Shown here: positions 4,389 to 26,312 of the stretch, one piece after another
Layout: each line of letters starts with the position of its first letter
Position numbering within the stretch: position 1 is the stretch's first letter
Origin: an uncultured bacterium
Lineage (GTDB): Bacteria > Patescibacteriota > Minisyncoccia > UBA6257 > 2-01-FULL-56-20
Direction: 5' to 3'
NCBI GenBank assembly: GCA_963707865.1
Contig: OY970175.1
Span: 396,305-460,304, forward strand
DNA: 64,000 nt
The notes under the pieces: generated by a model
What the model saw: only the letters and a program-made list of their open reading frames with translations
What the model was told of the DNA's origin: nothing
Databases searched by the model: none
Position numbers and translations under genes: made by a program

Positions 4389-4397
4389 GCAAGCAGA

Positions 4398-5984
4398 TTA
4401 AGGGCTCGTCACGGGAACGAAGGTTTCAGTGAAAGCACAGTTCACAACGGAGCTCGTGGGTACGCCATCGCTGCTGTGGCAAAAACCGTTATTGAGTGGA
4501 GTGTAGTTCGCGAGCGGAGAGATGTTTACGCCATAGACCATGTTTGGGACAATGAACACCTGCGTGCCTGACGCATTTCCGGGGAACGAGGAAATGCTCG
4601 GATTGCTCCCGATGATCGTCACTGTAAAATTGGAAGGTGATGCCGTCCCGCCCTGCGAGTTGTCAACCGCCACCGAAACGTTCAAGATGCTTGTATTGTT
4701 GGTTGGCATAACGAGAGCGGGAACCGATTGATTGCTTGATGCGGGCGAGTTCAAAAATGATTCAGCAACATCCGATGGCGTCGCAAAGGAAATTCCCGTT
4801 ACATTAATATCCAGTCCCAAGGTATCGGCCAATTCATTGATACCAACGACGTTTCCGTATTGATCCACGAGCGGCCCGCCGCTGTCTCCCGGGTTTATTA
4901 GCGCCGAGGTTTGCAACAATTCTCCAAGCTCTGAAAATCCCGCAACGGTCCTTCGGGCGGTTACAATCCCCGCCTCGACCTCAAGCGTCTGGTCGGTATC
5001 GCAGGTTCTGGGAAACCCGAAAGAAACGACGCTTGCGCCGAGCGGCAAACTTGCATCGCTTGAATTTCCGAAAGAAACTACCGGCAATCCGCCTCTCGCA
5101 ACTTGCAAAAGCGCCAAATCCCTGGTCGGATCTTCCTGCTGGATAGTGGCCGGGACCACCATGCCATCGTTGAAATAGACGTTGATGCTGCCCGCTCCGG
5201 TTATCACGTGGTCGTCCGTCAGAATGCCTCCGCCGCCTTGGACAACCATGCCGCTGCCGCACCCAAAATCAGTGCGAATCAAGACGACCGAGGGAGAAAG
5301 CTTCGCCACGATTTGCGCCGTTGTCAGGACTGTACCTGATTGGGAAGTCGTAGGAGAGCCGGGTCGTATCGTTATCGCCCCGGGGAACGTGAATTGACCG
5401 CCGTCAGGATTTTTCACGGTGACATCGTAAAGACCCGGGTTGAATCCTGACGGATATTGAGCCGAAATCAACGTTGGGGTAATGGAGCCCATTATTTGAA
5501 GGCCGGTATTTCCCAGCGTCACCTCCGCGTCACTTTCAAAGCCGGAACCGTTAATGGAGATGGTATTCTGATAACCTGCAATCATAATCGTCGGGTTTAC
5601 GAAAGTTATGACGGGAGCGTTGCTCGAGGCGTTTTGGAGCGCCGTCACTTGCTTTTGAAGCGTCGTTATTTGGGTGGCGGCGCCGGCAGAACTCTTTTTT
5701 GAGGATTGGACTGGCGCCGATTTTAACTGTTGTATTTCTGCTTCAAGCTCGTTGATACGCACATCAACCGTATCGCTTGCAGTTGTCGTGGCTGATTGAG
5801 CGGACGATGAGGATTGTATAATAAGAGATTGCTCAAATTGGTTTGCTTTTGCCTGAACCGCTGCGTTGATTTGGTTTTGTTCATAGCTCCGCAACGCGAT
5901 GACGCCACGATAACCACCATAACTAGTGGATAGGACTAGGAAAGTAATGATGACGACTTTATAGCTTTGCCAGAATGCGTTCAT
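4398..5984 (-). CDS. secreted trypsin-like (S1/HtrA-family) serine protease with N-terminal TM/coiled-coil and IPT/TIG-like domain
   Basis: It carries the GDSGGP active-site motif (LINPGDSGGPLVDQYGNVVGI). An Ig-like beta-rich segment and an N-terminal hydrophobic helix are also present. Confidence 0.65.
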   Translation of the reverse strand: MNAFWQSYKVVIITFLVLSTSYGGYRGVIALRSYEQNQINAAVQAKANQFEQSLIIQSSSSAQSATTTASDTVDVRINELEAEIQQLKSAPVQSSKKSSAGAATQITTLQKQVTALQNASSNAPVITFVNPTIMIAGYQNTISINGSGFESDAEVTLGNTGLQIMGSITPTLISAQYPSGFNPGLYDVTVKNPDGGQFTFPGAITIRPGSPTTSQSGTVLTTAQIVAKLSPSVVLIRTDFGCGSGMVVQGGGGILTDDHVITGAGSINVYFNDGMVVPATIQQEDPTRDLALLQVARGGLPVVSFGNSSDASLPLGASVVSFGFPRTCDTDQTLEVEAGIVTARRTVAGFSELGELLQTSALINPGDSGGPLVDQYGNVVGINELADTLGLDINVTGISFATPSDVAESFLNSPASSNQSVPALVMPTNNTSILNVSVAVDNSQGGTASPSNFTVTIIGSNPSISSFPGNASGTQVFIVPNMVYGVNISPLANYTPLNNGFCHSSDGVPTSSVVNCAFTETFVPVTSP

Positions 5985-8891: not shown

Positions 8892-9323
8892 GAGCCTTGC
8901 GGCTCCATAACTCTTTCGAGCTATGACCCATAGGAGGTTGCTGAACGCGGGGTTCAGTATCTCCTATGGGGTTTTGAGCCATGCCAAGCGATGTTTGGTT
9001 TAGGCTATACAATCCGATATTGAATTGTTAAGAAAACTATACCGCTTGCGACCTTTCCCGTCCAACCCTAGCTTAGATCGTAGGCGTTGCGAAGGGGGAA
9101 GTTATCAACTTGCCTCATTCGGCATTTCGTCGCCCCGTAATGAAGCACGTTCCTAACGATTCTCAAAAAACTTGACAAATGTGGTGTTATTATGTTAAAC
9201 TTACAGCGTTCCTTAACAATGGAAAATTCAAGGTTTCCAGTGAAATGAGGCGAGCGTTGGGGAAGGCAATCAATGTGGCTTCTCGAACACTCGCCTCATA
9301 ACCTGAGCGGGTAGAAATGGAGG

Positions 9324-19287: not shown

Positions 19288-21015
19288 TCACTTACTCGCG
19301 CCCTGAAGAGTTTTCAATTGCGCCTGGAGTGCTTGTAATTGTGCCTCCAACTGCTGCAGCGTGGCTGCGGCCGCGCTTGTGCTCGCGGTGTTTGTGGATT
19401 GTCCTCCGCCATACAATGCGTTCAGTGCAATCCTTGTTTTCGCGCCCACCATGCCCCATCCAGTCACCGCAGGACTTCCCGAACACACGATATTCTGATC
19501 GCACTGGAACTGCTGGACCGCTCTCTGCGTCAATGTCCCAAAGAAACCGCTCGCGTAGCCGGAATCAAGATACCCTTTCTGGATCAAAAACGTCTGTAAA
19601 TTTTTAACGTCGCCGCTCCGAAGGCCGAGGGACAATGTTGTTGTAAACGTTGCCGATACCGATGCCGTGGGTACCGATATCACAGGTACTGGTGTTGCAG
19701 ATACCGACGTCACTGAAGAGGAAACGACGGGTGCGGAAGATGCGGCCTGGGCCGCCACCGTGGGCGCGGTCACACTTGTGGTTACGCTCGTGGTTGCTGC
19801 AACCAACTGCGGCTTCACAGGCGACGTCTGAATGCCATACTGCAATGCTTGCGCGGAGACATTACCCGCCGCGTCGTAAGCGTCAACGGCATAGTTATAG
19901 TTTGTGAGAGAAGCAAGACCCGTATCCGCATACGAGGGAGAATTCGCAATCGCAATCTGCGCCCCGTTCCGATAGACGTGGTATCCCACAACGCCCACGT
20001 TATCGTACGAAAGTGACCAAGCAAGATCTATCTCTGACATAGACACTGGTTTCGCAGAGAGATTAAAGGGTGCGCTGGGCGCCGACGTATCCGGCGGAAG
20101 CGTGGTCCCCTGCACCGGATAGCTCTCGCCGGAAAAATTCCCTGCAGCATCGTAGGCGACCACATTGTAAAGATAACTCGTAGCGGCGGCGAGGTTCGTG
20201 TTTTTATATGTCGTTGGCGTGGAAGAAACGTTTGCAACCTGCGTCCCGTTCCGATACACGTAATAGCCCGCTACTCCCACGTTGTCGGAAGAAGCCTGCC
20301 ATGTGACGTCAATCTCACTTGATGATTTAGCGGTCACGAAAAGCGAGGACGGCACGGAGGGCGGAGTGATATCTGAAATTGTTGTCGCGTTCACCTGGCT
20401 GGAATAGGAAACATTCCCTGCCGCATCATACGCTGCAACCTTATAGGTGTAGGTGAATCCCGGCGAGAGGCCGGTGTCGGTATACGTAGTTGCGGTAAAC
20501 GGGTTTGCGATGCCGGGAATTCGGTTACCGTTGCGGTAGATATAATACCCTATGAGGGCGACATTATCAGTGGAAGTATTCCAAGAAAGCACTACCGATG
20601 AGGTGGCCGGCACAACCGAAATCCACGTGGGAGAGGAAGGAGGGGTGATGTCTTTCATGACCGAAACGGGGGAAGACGGAACAGAAAGCGAAGAGACGTT
20701 TCCTGCGGCATCGTATGCAGCGACAGTATACGAATATACCGCCCCGGGATTAACTGTGTCCGTGTAACTTGTGCTTTGGATATTTGCGACCAAGGTTCCG
20801 TTGCGATAGAGATAATATCCGGCGACGCCGACGTCATCGGTAGAAGCACTCCACGAAACGCTTATCTGGTCATATTTTGATAAAGAGACCGAAACTCCGG
20901 TAGGCGCGGAAGGCGGGGCCGTGCCTGCAGACTGGGCACGAGCAACGCCGGTCATGATAAAAAGACCCAAGAGAAAAGGGATTATTAGATACTTCCCTCT
21001 TTCCATTTTCATCAT
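19288..21015 (-). CDS. secreted protein with ~5 fibronectin type III-like repeats and C-terminal peptidoglycan-binding (PG_binding_1-like) domain
   Basis: It has a signal peptide and repeated units of the form PSAPT...W...S.DNVGV.GY.VYRNG. The C-terminus contains LQTFLIQKGYLDSGYASGFFGTLTQRAVQQFQ. Confidence 0.6.
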   Translation of the reverse strand: MMKMERGKYLIIPFLLGLFIMTGVARAQSAGTAPPSAPTGVSVSLSKYDQISVSWSASTDDVGVAGYYLYRNGTLVANIQSTSYTDTVNPGAVYSYTVAAYDAAGNVSSLSVPSSPVSVMKDITPPSSPTWISVVPATSSVVLSWNTSTDNVALIGYYIYRNGNRIPGIANPFTATTYTDTGLSPGFTYTYKVAAYDAAGNVSYSSQVNATTISDITPPSVPSSLFVTAKSSSEIDVTWQASSDNVGVAGYYVYRNGTQVANVSSTPTTYKNTNLAAATSYLYNVVAYDAAGNFSGESYPVQGTTLPPDTSAPSAPFNLSAKPVSMSEIDLAWSLSYDNVGVVGYHVYRNGAQIAIANSPSYADTGLASLTNYNYAVDAYDAAGNVSAQALQYGIQTSPVKPQLVAATTSVTTSVTAPTVAAQAASSAPVVSSSVTSVSATPVPVISVPTASVSATFTTTLSLGLRSGDVKNLQTFLIQKGYLDSGYASGFFGTLTQRAVQQFQCDQNIVCSGSPAVTGWGMVGAKTRIALNALYGGGQSTNTASTSAAAATLQQLEAQLQALQAQLKTLQGASK

Positions 21016-21043
21016 TGCCTCTTATCATAACATACTAACGGGC

Positions 21044-21114
21044 GGGGGCAGTAGGAATCGAACCTACGTCGACGGTTTTGGAGACCGCCGTCCTACCACT
21101 GAACGATGCCCCCT
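21044..21114 (-). tRNA. tRNA-Trp (anticodon CCA)
   Basis: A hand-folded cloverleaf has acceptor stem GGGGGCA/TGCCCCC and anticodon loop CU-CCA-AA. Confidence 0.75.
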
Positions 21115-21128
21115 TACCGGTAATAATA

Positions 21129-21308
21129 CTATTTTCCGGTAATCCTCGCCTCCTTGTGCACCGTCTGTTTGCGGCACCACTTGCAAAATTTCTTAAACTC
21201 CAGCTTCCGCTCCACGGTCTTCTTGTTCTTGGTCGTGTAATAATTCCGCCGCTTACACACGGAACAACGGAGGGTGATCAATTTGTCGGCACGCTTCACT
21301 TTCGCCAT
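21129..21308 (-). CDS. rpmG: 50S ribosomal protein L33
   Basis: The protein reads [30 protein letters not shown]...[12 protein letters not shown]. The start was trimmed from the ORF-track call. Confidence 0.85.
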
Positions 21309-21383
21309 GGGAACTATTTTAGCCGATTCGCGGAAAATTGGCAAATCGCGCCGCACGCGCCGGCGCCGCTTTGAACCATTTTG

Positions 21384-21671
21384 AGCCGATGGTCGGATTT
21401 GAACCGACGACCTACTCCTTCATTGCTACCTCAACTTCGCAACGCTTATATGAGGATTAGACTGTATCTTGCGCATACCACTCTCGCGGCGCAGCGCCCC
21501 TTGCCAGTCGTTCGGGCGGGAAAAATAATTTTGCTCTCGCCACGGTCTTGGCCCTTGCTCCACGCATTGGCCTTTAACCGTAATTCGGGATTCGCAGGCA
21601 GGTTTCCCTACCCGTGGGCATGACCCCTTCGGTCCACCATGGAGTTGCTCTACCAGCTGAGCTACATCGGC
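21384..21671 (-). tRNA. tRNA-Thr (anticodon GGU) interrupted by a 215-nt group I intron in the anticodon loop
   Basis: The 5' half (GCCGATGTAGCTCAGCTGGTAGAGCAACTCCATGGT) and the 3' half (AAGGAGTAGGTCGTCGGTTCAAATCCGACCATCGGCT) together form a perfect cloverleaf once nucleotides 21421..21635 are removed. Confidence 0.6.
21421..21635 (-). ncRNA. group I intron (small, Azoarcus-like size) between tRNA positions 36 and 37
   Basis: The 5' exon ends in U and the intron ends in G. Intron nucleotides 12-17 (GUCAUG) can pair with the 5' exon end CAUGGU to form P1 with a U-G pair at the splice site. A GGGAAACC segment is also present. Confidence 0.5.
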
Positions 21672-22267
21672 ATTTTCTCTTTTGAAACCAAATCAACCAA
21701 GAGATCTCGCAGCTTTTTATTGTGATACATCACGGTCATAACGCCATATTGGCTCTTTTTCCTGTAAGTGCCTATGGAACCTGATTTTGTGATGATTGGT
21801 TTGTTGATTTGGTCTTTCTCTATATTAAGTTTTTTAACCCAAAAGTCCAGAGCTTCGCCTGGGTCGATATCATTAAATAGTTGCAAGCCGAATTTTAAAT
21901 CCTCCTTACGAATACCGAATATTTTCAGAAGGAATTTGATGAATATTTCAATGAGGGCTGGATCGGTATTGCCGAGTCGGACAGAAGAATGGCTTGCTTT
22001 TGTCCCCTCTCCCCAATAAAGACCAATACCCAGTCCGAACAACTTCGCCTCGTCCGGGGTCTTTGGTTCATTAAAATGGAACGGGTCGCCGTTAGGATTT
22101 TTCTTGACATAAGTTGCATCGCTGTGAGTCCGTCGAGGAATCTGATATTTTTCCATCCAATACGAGATTGTATGCAAAGAGCAACGCAAAATAGTAGCAA
22201 TATCTTGCATTGATTTTTTCTCTTCTTTATAAAGTTTGATCAAAATGAGCTTCTTAAGCACACCCAA
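21662..22267 (-). CDS. HTH + LAGLIDADG-like (GLYWGEG) putative homing endonuclease, abutting the intron-containing tRNA
   Basis: It has an N-terminal HTH (MQDIATILRCSLHTISYW) and a single LAGLIDADG-like box (FGLGIGLYWGEGTK). Its 3' end overlaps the tRNA 5' end by 10 nt. Confidence 0.35.
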   Translation of the reverse strand: MGVLKKLILIKLYKEEKKSMQDIATILRCSLHTISYWMEKYQIPRRTHSDATYVKKNPNGDPFHFNEPKTPDEAKLFGLGIGLYWGEGTKASHSSVRLGNTDPALIEIFIKFLLKIFGIRKEDLKFGLQLFNDIDPGEALDFWVKKLNIEKDQINKPIITKSGSIGTYRKKSQYGVMTVMYHNKKLRDLLVDLVSKEKMPM

Positions 22268-22305: not shown

Positions 22306-22734
22306 ATGGGGTATAATAACGCTATGGAACTCCAGGTCGGCGTGAAAGCGCTTCTCAAAAATAAGGACGGCAAATATCTCCTTGTGCGGCGTTCGCCCAA
22401 GAAGTATCCCGAAGTCGGTGCAAAGTGGGACATCGTCGGCGGAAGGATCAATCCCGGTGCGTCGCTTCTTGATAACCTAAAAAGGGAAATTAAAGAAGAA
22501 ACGGATCTGGATCTCGCGGAAACCCCGCGACTCATAGCAGCCCAGGACATTCTACGACCTCCCGAGAAGCATATCGTGAGGTTGACTTACCTCGGGACCA
22601 TTAACGGGCAACCAAAACTTGACGATGAAAACCTGGAGTATCGCTGGTTCACGATGAACGAAATAAAGGCGCTGGACGATTTGGATTCCTACGTCAAAAA
22701 ACTGGTCAACGACGGCGAGCTTCCACTTACTTGA
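22306..22734 (+). CDS. NUDIX hydrolase
   Basis: It contains the Nudix box GGRINPGASLLDNLKREIKEETD. Confidence 0.7.
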   Translation: MGYNNAMELQVGVKALLKNKDGKYLLVRRSPKKYPEVGAKWDIVGGRINPGASLLDNLKREIKEETDLDLAETPRLIAAQDILRPPEKHIVRLTYLGTINGQPKLDDENLEYRWFTMNEIKALDDLDSYVKKLVNDGELPLT

Positions 22735-25579
22735 TTGTGATCGTTGCGAGCAGGAATGGAGTAGTGCCTAGCACTGGATCAATCGTAATCCATAACCCGT
22801 ACTTGTTTCCGATCTTTCCATTCTTGAAGGCGGACGTCAACTTGGTCGAGAGATTGTAGATGTATTGCTGACCCGTTGAATCAAAGCGGAACTGATTCAG
22901 AGTATTCGAGCCACCGCTAGATACTGCGGCGGCGGCGGTAATTCCACAGAATGTACCAGTGTCACCGGCACAAACATAAAGTTTTGCCGTCCAACCAGAA
23001 ATCGTTGAAGGGATTTTGACCGGAATAGTACTGCCGTTCTGGAAGTCCTTGTTTGAGATGGTGAGAGGAGGCTGTGCGGCAATAATCACGTCATTAACGG
23101 TCCCCGATTGGTTATTGTAGTTGCCAGTCGAACTTATAAACGTCCAAGGATCAACATACGCGCCACCCGCTGTGTGTGTAGTACCAGACAGGTTAAGGGT
23201 ATTCTGAGGGCTACCACCGACACCGATACACGAGCCGGTTGCGGTGTGAGACGTACCGTTATAAAGCACAGCGTAGCCGGTGACATGGCAGGTCGCATCG
23301 GCTTTCTTGATGTTGTCGTCAACCTTGCCGTTCGCGTCGTTATAGTTTCCTGTGACATCAGTGAATGTCCAGGCGTCGCCGGTATAGGTACCAGCATTGG
23401 TGTGAGTTGTACCGCTTAAATCAAGACCGGGTAATGCTTCACCCTTAACTCCATTTGCCGAACCATCTGCAGTGTGGGAATTGCCATCATAAGTCACATC
23501 GTAAGGAGTGACCACGATCGTCGCATCGGCTTTGCTGATATCAATGGCCACATTTCCACTGTCATCATTGTAGTTTCCGGTAACGTCTGTAAATGTCCAG
23601 TTGGCAGTCCCGCCGGGAACATCGGTGAAGGAGTCTCCGAGAACTAGGCCCGCGAGTGGTTCGCCTTTGGCGCCAGTGCAGGAGCCACTTGCTCCGTGAG
23701 CATCACCGTCATAAGTGCCGCTGTAGCCGGTGACGGTGCATGTTGCATCTGCTTTGGTGATTACAATAGATACATCGCCGCTAGCGTCGTTGTAGTTCGT
23801 TCCACCAGTAAAGGTCCAGTGAGCCGTGCCGCCAGGAACATCGGTGAAAGTAGATCCTAGATTAAGCGAACCGCTAAGGTCTTCGCCTTTTACCCCAGTT
23901 GCAGCATCAGAAGCACCGTGCGCATTGCCATCGTAGACGCCGGTGTAGCCAGTAATGTTGATCGTCGCATCGGCTTTGCTGATATCAATGGCTACACTTC
24001 CACTGTCATCATCGTAGTTTCCAGTAACGTCCGTGAATGTCCAATCCGCTGTCCCGCCGGGAACATTAGTGAAGGTTGCACCGAGGTCAAGGCCTTCGAG
24101 TGTTTCGTCTTTGGCGCCGATGCAGGAGCCTGTTGCACCATGCGGGTCACCATCATAGGTGCCGGTGTAGCCGGTGATTGTGCAGGTCGGGGCAGCCTTT
24201 GTTATGGTAATTGTTGTGCTATCACTGCTTCCATTTTGGTCGTTGTAGTTCGTCCCGCCAGAGAAAGTCCAGTGAGCAGTGCCACCGGGTACGTTCATAA
24301 AGCTGGAACCGAGGTCCACCGAAGCGCTGAGATCCGCGCCACCAACACCAAAACAGTTGCCGCTCGCGCCATGCGCATTGCCGTCATAAGCACCAGCGTA
24401 GCCAGTGATTGAAGAACAGTCTGCGGTAGCTTTGTTTATGGTGATAGAAACCGGGTCGCTCGTGGCTTGGTTGTAATTATCGTCAGCCGCTTTAGTTACG
24501 GTGATGGAACAAGTCCCCGTGCCGCTCGTGATGGTCACTGCGCCACTATTCGTGTCCACGCTGCATGCAGTGGACGCGCCCGCACTAAAGGTAACCGTAC
24601 CCGTCCCGCTGCCGCCCGACTTTCCCGCAGCGATACCTGCCTGCCCGTATGTAGCGCTTGCTGGTAGGTCGGTGGTCAATGTTGCTTGATCGGCTTTCTG
24701 TGCCGTTGTATTTTCTGTAACTTCAGGAGCGGGATTATAGCTTCCATTTCCCGCTTGGTTATAGTGAACCGTGCAAGTGCCCGTACCGCTCGTCATTGTG
24801 ATCGTGGCCGAACCGCTGCCGCTGCCGGAACAGACACCGCTCGTTGTAATAGCAACGGTCAAGCCAGAATCCGCAGTTGCCGCGACTGGAAATGTGGTGT
24901 TGTAAACCGCACTTGCCGGTGCGTGCGTAGTGACCGTGATTGTCTGATTCGCCTTCGCAATCAAATTAAACGTGGCTGTCTCAATGACAGTTTTGTTTCC
25001 CGTTAGGCCAGAAGGAGAGCAAGTTCCTGTCCCACTACAATCTCCGCCGCTCCAACCAACAAAACTTGAACCCCCATCCGCCGCAGCGGTTAAGGTTACA
25101 GAAGGGTTATTACTGTTGAATGTTTGAGTGCATGATCCAGACGTTGCCCCCGCTGCAACTATACAGTCGATGGTGGTGCCGGTGCCTGTTATGGCGCCAT
25201 TACCAGTGCCCGCTCCGTTCACTTGTAAGACAGGATGGTTTGCGTCGGTGAAGTTGCCACTCTGCGTCACGCCCGAGGTCTCGCCGGTCACAGTGTAGGG
25301 ATAGGAACCACCCGCTGTGTCATCGGTCGGGAGCGTGAACTGCCAGCTGAACGCTCCGCTCTCGTCAACAGTGGTTTCGCCCGTCACCGCGCCGTACGGC
25401 GCTTGGATGTTTATATCAACTGTTTCTCCCGCCACGTATCCGGCACCATCGCTATTGTTACCGGAAATAACGACCGTACTGCCGGGGCTGTAATCCGCCT
25501 GGTTTGTGGAAACGTATGCCAGAGCCGGCATCGTACCCGCGACCAACAAAACAAGGGAAACAATTAATGTTTTTTTCAT
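22727..25579 (-). CDS. large secreted adhesin-like protein with ~6 tandem MBG/Ig-like repeats
   Basis: It has a signal peptide and repeated ~90-aa units of the form TGYTGTYDG.aHGA.G...G.....L.LG.tFTnVPGGTA.WTFT....NYND.sG.V.I.I.KA. Confidence 0.6.
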   Translation of the reverse strand: MKKTLIVSLVLLVAGTMPALAYVSTNQADYSPGSTVVISGNNSDGAGYVAGETVDINIQAPYGAVTGETTVDESGAFSWQFTLPTDDTAGGSYPYTVTGETSGVTQSGNFTDANHPVLQVNGAGTGNGAITGTGTTIDCIVAAGATSGSCTQTFNSNNPSVTLTAAADGGSSFVGWSGGDCSGTGTCSPSGLTGNKTVIETATFNLIAKANQTITVTTHAPASAVYNTTFPVAATADSGLTVAITTSGVCSGSGSGSATITMTSGTGTCTVHYNQAGNGSYNPAPEVTENTTAQKADQATLTTDLPASATYGQAGIAAGKSGGSGTGTVTFSAGASTACSVDTNSGAVTITSGTGTCSITVTKAADDNYNQATSDPVSITINKATADCSSITGYAGAYDGNAHGASGNCFGVGGADLSASVDLGSSFMNVPGGTAHWTFSGGTNYNDQNGSSDSTTITITKAAPTCTITGYTGTYDGDPHGATGSCIGAKDETLEGLDLGATFTNVPGGTADWTFTDVTGNYDDDSGSVAIDISKADATINITGYTGVYDGNAHGASDAATGVKGEDLSGSLNLGSTFTDVPGGTAHWTFTGGTNYNDASGDVSIVITKADATCTVTGYSGTYDGDAHGASGSCTGAKGEPLAGLVLGDSFTDVPGGTANWTFTDVTGNYNDDSGNVAIDISKADATIVVTPYDVTYDGNSHTADGSANGVKGEALPGLDLSGTTHTNAGTYTGDAWTFTDVTGNYNDANGKVDDNIKKADATCHVTGYAVLYNGTSHTATGSCIGVGGSPQNTLNLSGTTHTAGGAYVDPWTFISSTGNYNNQSGTVNDVIIAAQPPLTISNKDFQNGSTIPVKIPSTISGWTAKLYVCAGDTGTFCGITAAAAVSSGGSNTLNQFRFDSTGQQYIYNLSTKLTSAFKNGKIGNKYGLWITIDPVLGTTPFLLATITIK

Positions 25580-26238: not shown

Positions 26239-26312
26239 TGGAGCCGGAGAGAGGAATCGAACCCCCGTCCTTGCTTTACAAAAGCATTGCTCTGCCATTG
26301 AGCTACTCCGGC
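26239..26312 (-). tRNA. tRNA-Thr (anticodon UGU), CCA encoded
   Basis: A hand-folded cloverleaf has acceptor stem GCCGGAG/CTCCGGC and anticodon loop UU-UGU-AA. Confidence 0.75.

Follow-up and report, generated by a model that had tools for sequence, protein, structure and literature searches.

How can a tRNA gene that is cut in two still yield a tRNA, and is the sequence between its halves an intron or the mark of a dead gene? This question is raised by a tRNA-Thr(GGU) gene on the minus strand of contig OY970175.1 (assembly GCA_963707865.1) from an uncultured member of the Patescibacteriota. The whole stretch of 64,000 nt that was analysed is referred to below as the window. The gene is interrupted by a 215-nt insert between positions 36 and 37 of the anticodon loop. 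It is very probable that this insert is a compact group I intron without an endonuclease gene, belonging to the described 'divergent' lineage of introns at the 36/37 site of Patescibacteria tRNA-Thr(GGU). The group I reading is based on the exon geometry, on homology to a published case and on the evolutionary conservation of every helix. The central feature is real and its intron class has already been published; the window adds a new example, not a discovery.

A tRNA-Thr(GGU) gene split between positions 36 and 37

The initial annotation described two tRNA halves 215 nt apart on the minus strand that give a canonical 73-nt tRNA once joined, and both the coordinates and ARAGORN agree with this description. 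Run with introns permitted, ARAGORN reports tRNA-Thr(ggt) i(37,215) for the 288-nt stretch, and the joined exons are recognised as a 73-nt canonical cloverleaf tRNA-Thr(ggt) with fully paired stems. With default settings, neither ARAGORN nor the Rfam tRNA model calls the interrupted gene in the window. The junction in uninterrupted homologues reads ...TGGT|AA..., as in the gene stretch ...GAGCAACTCCATGGTAAGGAGTAGGTC... used here as an example. Among the homologues examined there was no intron-less allele with an identical mature tRNA, the best uninterrupted homologue being 84% identical.

To find the same arrangement elsewhere, species-representative genomes were scanned with a pattern built from exon features only, namely the D-arm, seven free bases, TGGT and then a non-A base. 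The scan gave at least 120 loci, and all counts from it refer to the matches listed. tRNA-Thr(GGT) is split at 36/37 by 176-266 nt in at least 80 species-level genomes, with the inserts delimited from the exons alone. The terminal base is G in all 80 Thr-type inserts listed, although their boundaries were set by the exons only. A split that recurs at the same position with a G-ending insert is far beyond chance. The hosts are mostly Patescibacteria (Moran-, Kaiser-, Wolfe- and Saccharibacteria, and Paceibacteria). Identity to the window intron is 60-81% for 76 inserts that form one family, and 55-61% for those of loci L009, L102 and L120, the last of them left unaligned. The closest among the listed matches are L038 (81%) and L056 (80%), and the intron of contig CP011209.1 (L054) can be aligned to the window intron at 68% identity. 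A hidden Markov model of the family, built from 75 inserts without the window intron and its two closest relatives, matches the window once, with an envelope of 21635..21421 and an E-value of 1.3e-36.

Some matches to the exon pattern were set aside. L029 proved to be a tandem-tRNA artefact. In 11 listed loci (L001, L010, L013, L014, L031, L034, L035, L039, L066, L068 and L080) the insert appeared to end in A. A shift of the boundary by three bases makes each of them a tRNA-Phe(GAA) gene whose group I intron, 219-250 nt long, sits at 33/34 with U33 at -1 and an omega-G, and these loci were dropped from the Thr set. The tRNA-Phe(GAA) 33/34 intron is a class listed by Nakagawa et al. 2026 (PMC13011429). 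That 11 tRNA-Phe loci match a Thr exon pattern shows how easily intron boundaries can be miscalled.

Two of the more distant inserts are also of interest. L009 (4045..4334, plus strand), from a metagenome-assembled genome of the Bacillaceae, and L102 (1523..1823, plus strand) carry tRNA-Thr(GGU) 36/37 introns with a clearly different core, ...AAGGGAUGGUCC... Because these inserts do not align with the Patescibacteria tRNA-Thr intron family, independent colonisation of the same 36/37 site is suggested. In the Saccharibacteria-type locus L120, a weak match to Rfam Intron_gpI (21.6 bits, E 0.27) lies away from the tRNA-Thr, at 4391..4828 on the minus strand, and possibly represents a further group I intron, in some other host gene.

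Fold of the intron and its guide sequence

Since Rfam gave no Intron_gpI match, the fold was tested by comparison with the relatives. An alignment of 80 sequences, A1, was used, with pairing and covariation counted over its 79 distinct sequences. From A1, RNAalifold recovers the anticodon stem, P1, P2, P4, P5, P6, P7, P8 and P9 unaided. P3 was added as a pseudoknot, giving 51 pairs to be counted. In these pairs 95.3% of the cells are paired; with the 3' partners shifted by 1-3 columns the figure is 34-45%. Two-sided changes are found in 36 of the 51 pairs, and none of 500 shuffles reaches any of five measures. The helices stand in the canonical group I order, including the P3/P7 pseudoknot, and compensatory changes are seen in P2, P3, P5, P6, P8 and P9. 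The group I core on which the initial annotation had made its proposal depend, with P3-P7 and a guanosine-binding-site pattern, can thus be modelled as part of a covariation-backed P1-P9 structure.

The individual helices differ in how much they vary. The loop of P2 is GNRA across the family. All three pairs of P3 have compensated variants (CUC/GAG, CCU/AGG and UCC/GGA) and the helix is 98% paired; P4 is likewise 98% paired, being nearly invariant and carrying no covariation information, and P5 covaries in 4/4 pairs. A P3 drawn by eye (GCG[AA]UCCC / GGGGCGC) was ruled out, as nt 139-142 covary with nt 162-165 to form P8. The stretches that are invariant or nearly so are J3/4-P4 GAAUAACGGUUAA, P4'-P6 AAGACCGUGGCG, J6/7-P7-J7/3-P3' CGAACGACUGACAAGGG and J8/7-P7' AAGAUACAGUCU; the last two are similar to the classical group I R and S elements. 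The pattern expected of a guanosine site is present, with bulged C126, the G127-C176 pair, J8/7 AAGAUA and J6/7 CGA all (nearly) invariant. From this pattern and general group I knowledge, the G127-C176 pair beside the bulged C of P7 is predicted to be the guanosine-binding site.

In the conserved form of P1, the anticodon nucleotides G34-G35-U36 lie opposite an invariant G-C-C at intron nt 17-19 (21619..21617), in a helix that is 98% paired. In P1, which covers A1 columns 8-12/31-35, the GGU/GCC combination is invariant in 79/79 distinct sequences, with U36·G17 at columns 10/33. Two further P1 pairs, formed by intron nt 1-2 with nt 16-15, covary (GU/GC/UA and GC/AU), and in the window intron nt 2-5/11-14 make a small hairpin inside the P1 loop. 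The initial annotation had instead placed U36 opposite G12, in a 6-bp P1 formed by CAUGGU and GUCAUG (intron nt 12-17). That pairing does exist in the window intron and in its two closest relatives among the matches listed. As a conserved P1 it fails: this register is 62% paired over the 79 sequences, its middle pair fails in 73/78 and its splice-site pair is formed in 18/54 cells. What stands of the proposal is the U at -1 and the U·G wobble; as read from the aligned sequences, the splice-site wobble is U36·G17.

The following course of splicing can be proposed for the window intron, based on its fold and on general group I chemistry, by which catalysis and self-splicing would be expected. 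The 288-nt precursor would be transcribed, probably together with the upstream open reading frame (ORF) and rpmG, and the intron would fold into P1-P9. The anticodon G34-G35-U36 would pair with the guide G17-C18-C19, so that a wobble, U36·G17, marks the 5' splice site. Held at G127-C176 of P7, a free guanosine could then attack after U36. Following this step, omega-G215 would take the guanosine site and the 3'-OH of U36 would attack after G215, so that U36 is joined to A37 to give a normal 73-nt tRNA-Thr(GGU). The coordinates of the gene, of the intron elements and of the neighbouring genes are collected in Table 1.

Table 1. Position in the window of the interrupted tRNA-Thr(GGU) gene, its intron elements and its neighbours
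Feature	Position	Strand	Remarks
Whole interrupted tRNA-Thr(GGU) gene	21384..21671	-	288 nt = 36-nt 5' exon + 215-nt intron + 37-nt 3' exon; CCA not encoded
5' exon, tRNA nt 1-36	21636..21671	-	GCCGATGTAGCTCAGCTGGTAGAGCAACTCCATGGT; ends with anticodon GGU; U36 = -1 of 5' splice site
Group I intron, 215 nt, without own ORF	21421..21635	-	starts GGACC, ends CAATG; omega-G at 21421
3' exon, tRNA nt 37-73	21384..21420	-	AAGGAGTAGGTCGTCGGTTCAAATCCGACCATCGGCT
P1	21617..21638	-	21638..21634 (G34, G35, U36, intron G1(, G2)) with 21621..21617 (intron nt 15-19)
P2 hairpin, nt 20-43	21593..21616	-	GAAA tetraloop nt 30-33; contains GGGAAACC; compensatory changes in 9/9 pairs
P3 5' strand CCC, nt 47-49	21587..21589	-	followed by J3/4 GAAUU; partner GGG nt 136-138
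P4-P5 domain	21542..21581	-	P4 nt 55-60/89-94, J4/5 AAA, P5 nt 64-67/83-86, J5/4 AA
P6 hairpin, nt 95-99/117-121	21515..21541	-	followed by J6/7 CGA; compensatory changes in 4/5 pairs
P7 5' strand A-[C bulge]-G-A-C-U-G, nt 125-131	21505..21511	-	family-invariant; 98.7% paired with nt 172-177
P3 3' strand GGG, nt 136-138	21498..21500	-	after J7/3 GCAA; closes P3/P7 pseudoknot
P8 hairpin, nt 139-142/162-165, and inner stem with GAGA loop	21471..21497	-	4/4 outer pairs covary
J8/7 AAGAUA and P7 3' strand CAGUCU, nt 172-177	21459..21470	-	matches classical 'S' element AAGAUAUAGUC; (nearly) invariant
P9 hairpin, nt 181-185/203-207	21429..21455	-	followed by UAGCAAUG ending in omega-G; 5/5 pairs covary
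Gene for helix-turn-helix (HTH) + single LAGLIDADG-fold protein, 182 aa, not part of intron	21662..22210	-	codons 22210..21665
rpmG (ribosomal protein L33), next downstream	21129..21308	-	Pfam PF00471 Ribosomal_L33, E 9.4e-20
tRNA-Trp(CCA), gene beyond rpmG	21041..21113	-	ARAGORN and Rfam

Published relatives and alternative explanations

Group I introns of bacterial tRNA genes were extended from 4 to 21 gene/site classes with a bacterial tRNA-intron covariance model (Williams 2020, bioRxiv 10.1101/2020.01.27.920355). Nakagawa et al. 2026 (mSystems, PMC13011429) reported tRNA-Thr(GGU) 36/37 introns in three complete Patescibacteria genomes, the only cases in a set of 95 complete genomes, and give 'divergent group I introns' of tRNA-Thr as a term after Castelle et al. 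2018. According to the same paper, RF00028 misses the tRNA-Thr introns, ARAGORN often miscalls them as Arg(GCG) 34/35, and tFind (gpI_bact_tRNA.cm) detects them. The three Thr introns form a long, well-supported branch in the IA tree beside other Patescibacteria tRNA introns, and no Patescibacteria tRNA intron is assigned to IC (PMC13011429). Both published behaviours, the RF00028 miss and the ARAGORN Arg(gcg) miscall (Table 1 of PMC13011429), were reproduced here. Among the metagenome loci L121-L200 described below, ARAGORN with introns allowed wrongly reports tRNA-Arg(gcg) i34/35 or tRNA-His(gtg) i35 for many of the tRNA-Thr(GGU) genes that are interrupted. CP011209.1 is, we presume, GCA_001029635.1, one of the three published tRNA-Thr cases, and since the window intron can be aligned with its intron, we take the window intron to be a further member of the published class.

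Compared to the published Patescibacteria tRNA-Thr introns, the window intron has the same gene, site and phylum and is likewise without an internal endonuclease gene; nothing essential differs. The inserts listed here span 176-266 nt, whereas all bacterial tRNA introns together span 184-894 nt (PMC13011429). The frequencies are also different: against the three published cases stand at least 80 species-level genomes, mostly Patescibacteria, and 42 of the 80 metagenome loci listed, which suggests that the class is far more widespread than reported. The rarity and novelty that the initial annotation attached to an intron at 36/37 of tRNA-Thr(GGU) therefore cannot be maintained, the class being both published (PMC13011429) and common in our samples. 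Its main proposal, that this site holds a group I intron preceded by U at -1 and ending in an omega-G, agrees with the exon geometry, the P1-P9 covariation and the literature.

The initial annotation also pointed to Azoarcus-type IC3 introns. We consider it improbable that the insert is such an intron, a relative of the classical tRNA-Ile/Arg/Leu/fMet introns and not of the IA-affiliated Patescibacteria lineage. Classical 36/37 introns were reportedly described in Azoarcus tRNA-Ile(CAU) and Agrobacterium tRNA-Arg(CCU) by Reinhold-Hurek and Shub in 1992. These IC3 introns share the insertion site with the window intron, and their very short P1 likewise has the anticodon for its 5' strand; they are also about 200 nt long, have a GNRA loop on P2 and are without an ORF. 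The minimal architecture adds a superficial likeness, with the P2 GNRA loop, no P7.1/P7.2 between P7 and P3', and a simple P5 and P9. However, the host tRNA is another one, the core can be aligned neither by Rfam nor by eye, and splicing has been shown experimentally for Azoarcus, not for the tRNA-Thr class. The string GGGAAACC, taken at first as a conserved IC3 element, is the tip of P2, where the GNRA loop alone is conserved and the flanking stem letters vary and covary. It is noted that the other tRNA-Thr 36/37 introns in L009 and L102 have a different core that cannot be aligned with the family. The published tree, with the three tRNA-Thr introns in IA and no Patescibacteria tRNA intron in IC (PMC13011429), argues further against an IC3 affiliation. 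The 35/36 introns of Patescibacteria tRNA-Asn(GUU) as well as tRNA-Asp(GUC), which belong to IA, come from the same phylum and the same kind of host gene as the window intron; they self-splice in vitro and were reported to be phylogenetically closest to the Thr introns (PMC13011429). They differ in their site, in being detectable with RF00028 and in that some contain internal HNH endonuclease genes, of which the window intron has none.

Several points weigh against the reading of the insert as a spliced group I intron. The Rfam group I covariance search of 21421..21635, proposed as a check in the initial annotation, gave no match. Rfam Intron_gpI (RF00028) matched neither at gathering score in the whole window nor at E<=10 in 21300..21760, and in seven related loci, CP011209.1 among them, it matched none of the tRNA-Thr introns. 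This miss is not disqualifying, because RF00028 is a documented false negative for the tRNA-Thr 36/37 class. As P4 and P7 show no variation, there is no independent support for their pairing, and P3 is just 3 bp long. The fifth P1 pair of the window intron is mismatched (G·A), and the alternative 6-bp CAUGGU/GUCAUG pairing could form here. It should also be mentioned that no experimental splicing data have been published for the tRNA-Thr class, and that a second intact tRNA-Thr(GGU) was not found within the 64,000 nt of the window, the part of the genome that was scanned.

The last two points could equally be expected of a dead or split pseudogene, in which the insertion is not removed and either another gene supplies tRNA-Thr(GGU) or tRNA-Thr(UGU) reads its codons. 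A tRNA-Thr(UGU) does lie nearby (26239..26312), as the only other tRNA-Thr in the window, and standard tools recognise neither the tRNA nor the intron. Nevertheless, we regard a pseudogene as highly improbable. Both exons are intact with fully paired stems, and every listed insert follows U and ends in G. The invariant catalytic-core sequence and the compensated helices are kept in 79 distinct sequences from very divergent lineages; this conservation requires selection on the RNA fold, and makes a pseudogene unlikely.

Neighbouring genes and implications

The gene order tRNA-Thr(GGU)-rpmG-tRNA-Trp noted in the initial annotation is confirmed, with rpmG identified by Pfam and tRNA-Trp(CCA) by ARAGORN and Rfam, and rpmG is found at the equivalent place in at least 25 related loci. 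On either side of the tRNA/rpmG cluster are ORFs of 575 aa (19288..21015) and 950 aa (22727..25579), both on the minus strand. Their signal-peptide-like N-termini and many internal repeats resemble those of typical repetitive surface proteins. A LOOT RNA motif (Rfam RF03000) is strongly matched at 8892..9006 on the minus strand (85.6 bits, gathering score 46.4).

The 182-aa ORF directly upstream of the tRNA gene overlaps it, its stop codon TAG (21664..21662) being tRNA-Thr nt 8-10. Pfam gives weak HTH and LAGLIDADG_3 matches to the ORF, the latter below threshold. PF14528 reaches 12.9-13.1 bits, with its gathering cut-off at 22.5, and the best E-value among 25 homologues is 0.005. A sequence-profile search of the PDB returned no endonuclease, the sole return being a chance match to Cactin, and a Foldseek search of the ORF model against the PDB gave nothing significant. 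The structure predicted with database homologues has the alpha-beta-beta-alpha-beta-beta-alpha arrangement of a LAGLIDADG fold. In the motif GLGLYWGEG, E68 and G69 are invariant in 25 and in 40 homologues, and from an alignment by eye E68 is a candidate for the catalytic Asp/Glu metal ligand at the end of the motif helix. All of the 876 database homologues at E<=1e-5 are unnamed or labelled 'HTH domain'. Among known proteins, WhiA is a domesticated LAGLIDADG+HTH regulator, and F-CphI (psbA) and T4 seg/mob are free-standing homing endonucleases that lie next to genes with introns. In contrast to these, the ORF described here is equally linked to uninterrupted tRNA-Thr(GGU) and is known from its sequence and predicted fold. 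It may act as a free-standing homing endonuclease or as a domesticated regulator like WhiA, or it may have another role altogether.

The relation of the ORF to the intron was evaluated in two samples. Of the 71 evaluable intron-bearing loci selected by their exons, the full-length ORF lies directly upstream in 20, remnants or frameshifted copies of it occur in 5, and it is absent from 46. The other sample, 80 metagenome loci (L121-L200), was selected by the ORF alone. Wherever there is enough DNA, the downstream neighbour in these loci is tRNA-Thr(GGU), with an intron in 42 and uninterrupted in about 35 of the 80 listed. The uninterrupted loci rule out that the ORF accompanies only intron-bearing alleles. 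In 47 loci the stop codon falls on tRNA nt 8-10, with the same 10-nt overlap. RNase P cleavage at tRNA nt 1, if it occurs, would take the stop codon away from the ORF mRNA. On the ORF tree, intron status is patchy, and the nearest neighbour shares it in 81/103 cases. Since the ORF and the intron each occur without the other, neither needs the other, and what the ORF goes with is the tRNA-Thr(GGU) gene, not the intron in particular.

These data bear on the possibility of a two-part mobile unit, in which a free-standing LAGLIDADG endonuclease cuts the intron-less tRNA-Thr(GGU) and the intron spreads with the endonuclease or protects against it, by analogy with the collaborative homing proposed for cyanophage psbA. 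The contact of the ORF with the tRNA gene in every evaluable ORF-selected locus would fit such a unit, as would the position of its stop codon within the tRNA, the frameshifted copies and remnants, the patchy occurrence of the intron on the ORF tree, and the presence of a diverged paralogue 3' of intron-containing tRNA-Phe(GAA). Nonetheless we think the unit unlikely, given that the ORF stands beside an uninterrupted gene in about 35/80 of the loci chosen by it and is missing from 46/71 of the intron-containing loci. Each sample was selected by exon or ORF, and shared ancestry could explain the co-occurrence. The wider proposal, that this family of more than 800 HTH+LAGLIDADG-fold proteins consists of free-standing homing endonucleases which target tRNA genes, with ORF-less introns spreading alongside or giving immunity, is similarly doubtful. 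A palindromic anticodon arm would suit a homodimeric enzyme.

Other features of these loci were noted. The diverged paralogue lies directly 3' of intron-containing tRNA-Phe(GAA) in 5 of 10 evaluable loci (L013, L031, L035, L066 and L068), and also 3' of some intron-containing tRNA-Thr genes (L027 1186-1953, L033 1990-2739 and L138 1899-2585). Its profile E-values are 1e-20 to 1e-30, and 6e-8 for the truncated L013 copy. In the ORF-selected sample the anticodon stem is ..TCC/GGA.. in 35/35 intron-bearing alleles, 23 of them ACTCC/GGAGT, versus 2/24 uninterrupted ones. This bias could come from shared ancestry, from a splicing constraint or from homing with co-conversion of the exon flanks; intron-bearing alleles with CGTCA/TGACG also occur in the wider genome sample. 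In L141 (from about 1480) and L142 (from about 1072), a gene for an IS200/IS605-type transposase occupies the very point behind the LAGLIDADG-like ORF at which the tRNA would be expected to start, while L143, with an ORF 97-99% identical to those of L141 and L142, has an intron-bearing tRNA at that place.

The intron at this locus has consequences for the annotation of related genomes. Because the gene escapes default ARAGORN and both Rfam models, that for tRNA and that for group I introns, such genomes seem to be without tRNA-Thr(GGU) and their completeness scores suffer. The family alignment provides a covariation-backed secondary structure with the correct guide, and is usable for a detection model and for the design of splicing assays. 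There are two by-products of the analysis, this covariation-backed structure of the class together with the evidence of its wide spread, and an undescribed LAGLIDADG-fold gene that overlaps the 5' end of the tRNA. In a search of the literature, no paper describing the linkage of the ORF to tRNA-Thr(GGU) was found. The search for endonuclease genes by Nakagawa et al. was confined to the interior of the introns, and they concluded that mobility is limited (PMC13011429). If the tRNA genes were indeed targets of this family of endonucleases, the published inference that Patescibacteria tRNA introns are essentially immobile for want of internal endonuclease genes would be overturned. In any case, the tight linkage between tRNA-Thr(GGU) and a LAGLIDADG-fold gene offers a testable lead on how introns without an endonuclease persist or move in reduced genomes.

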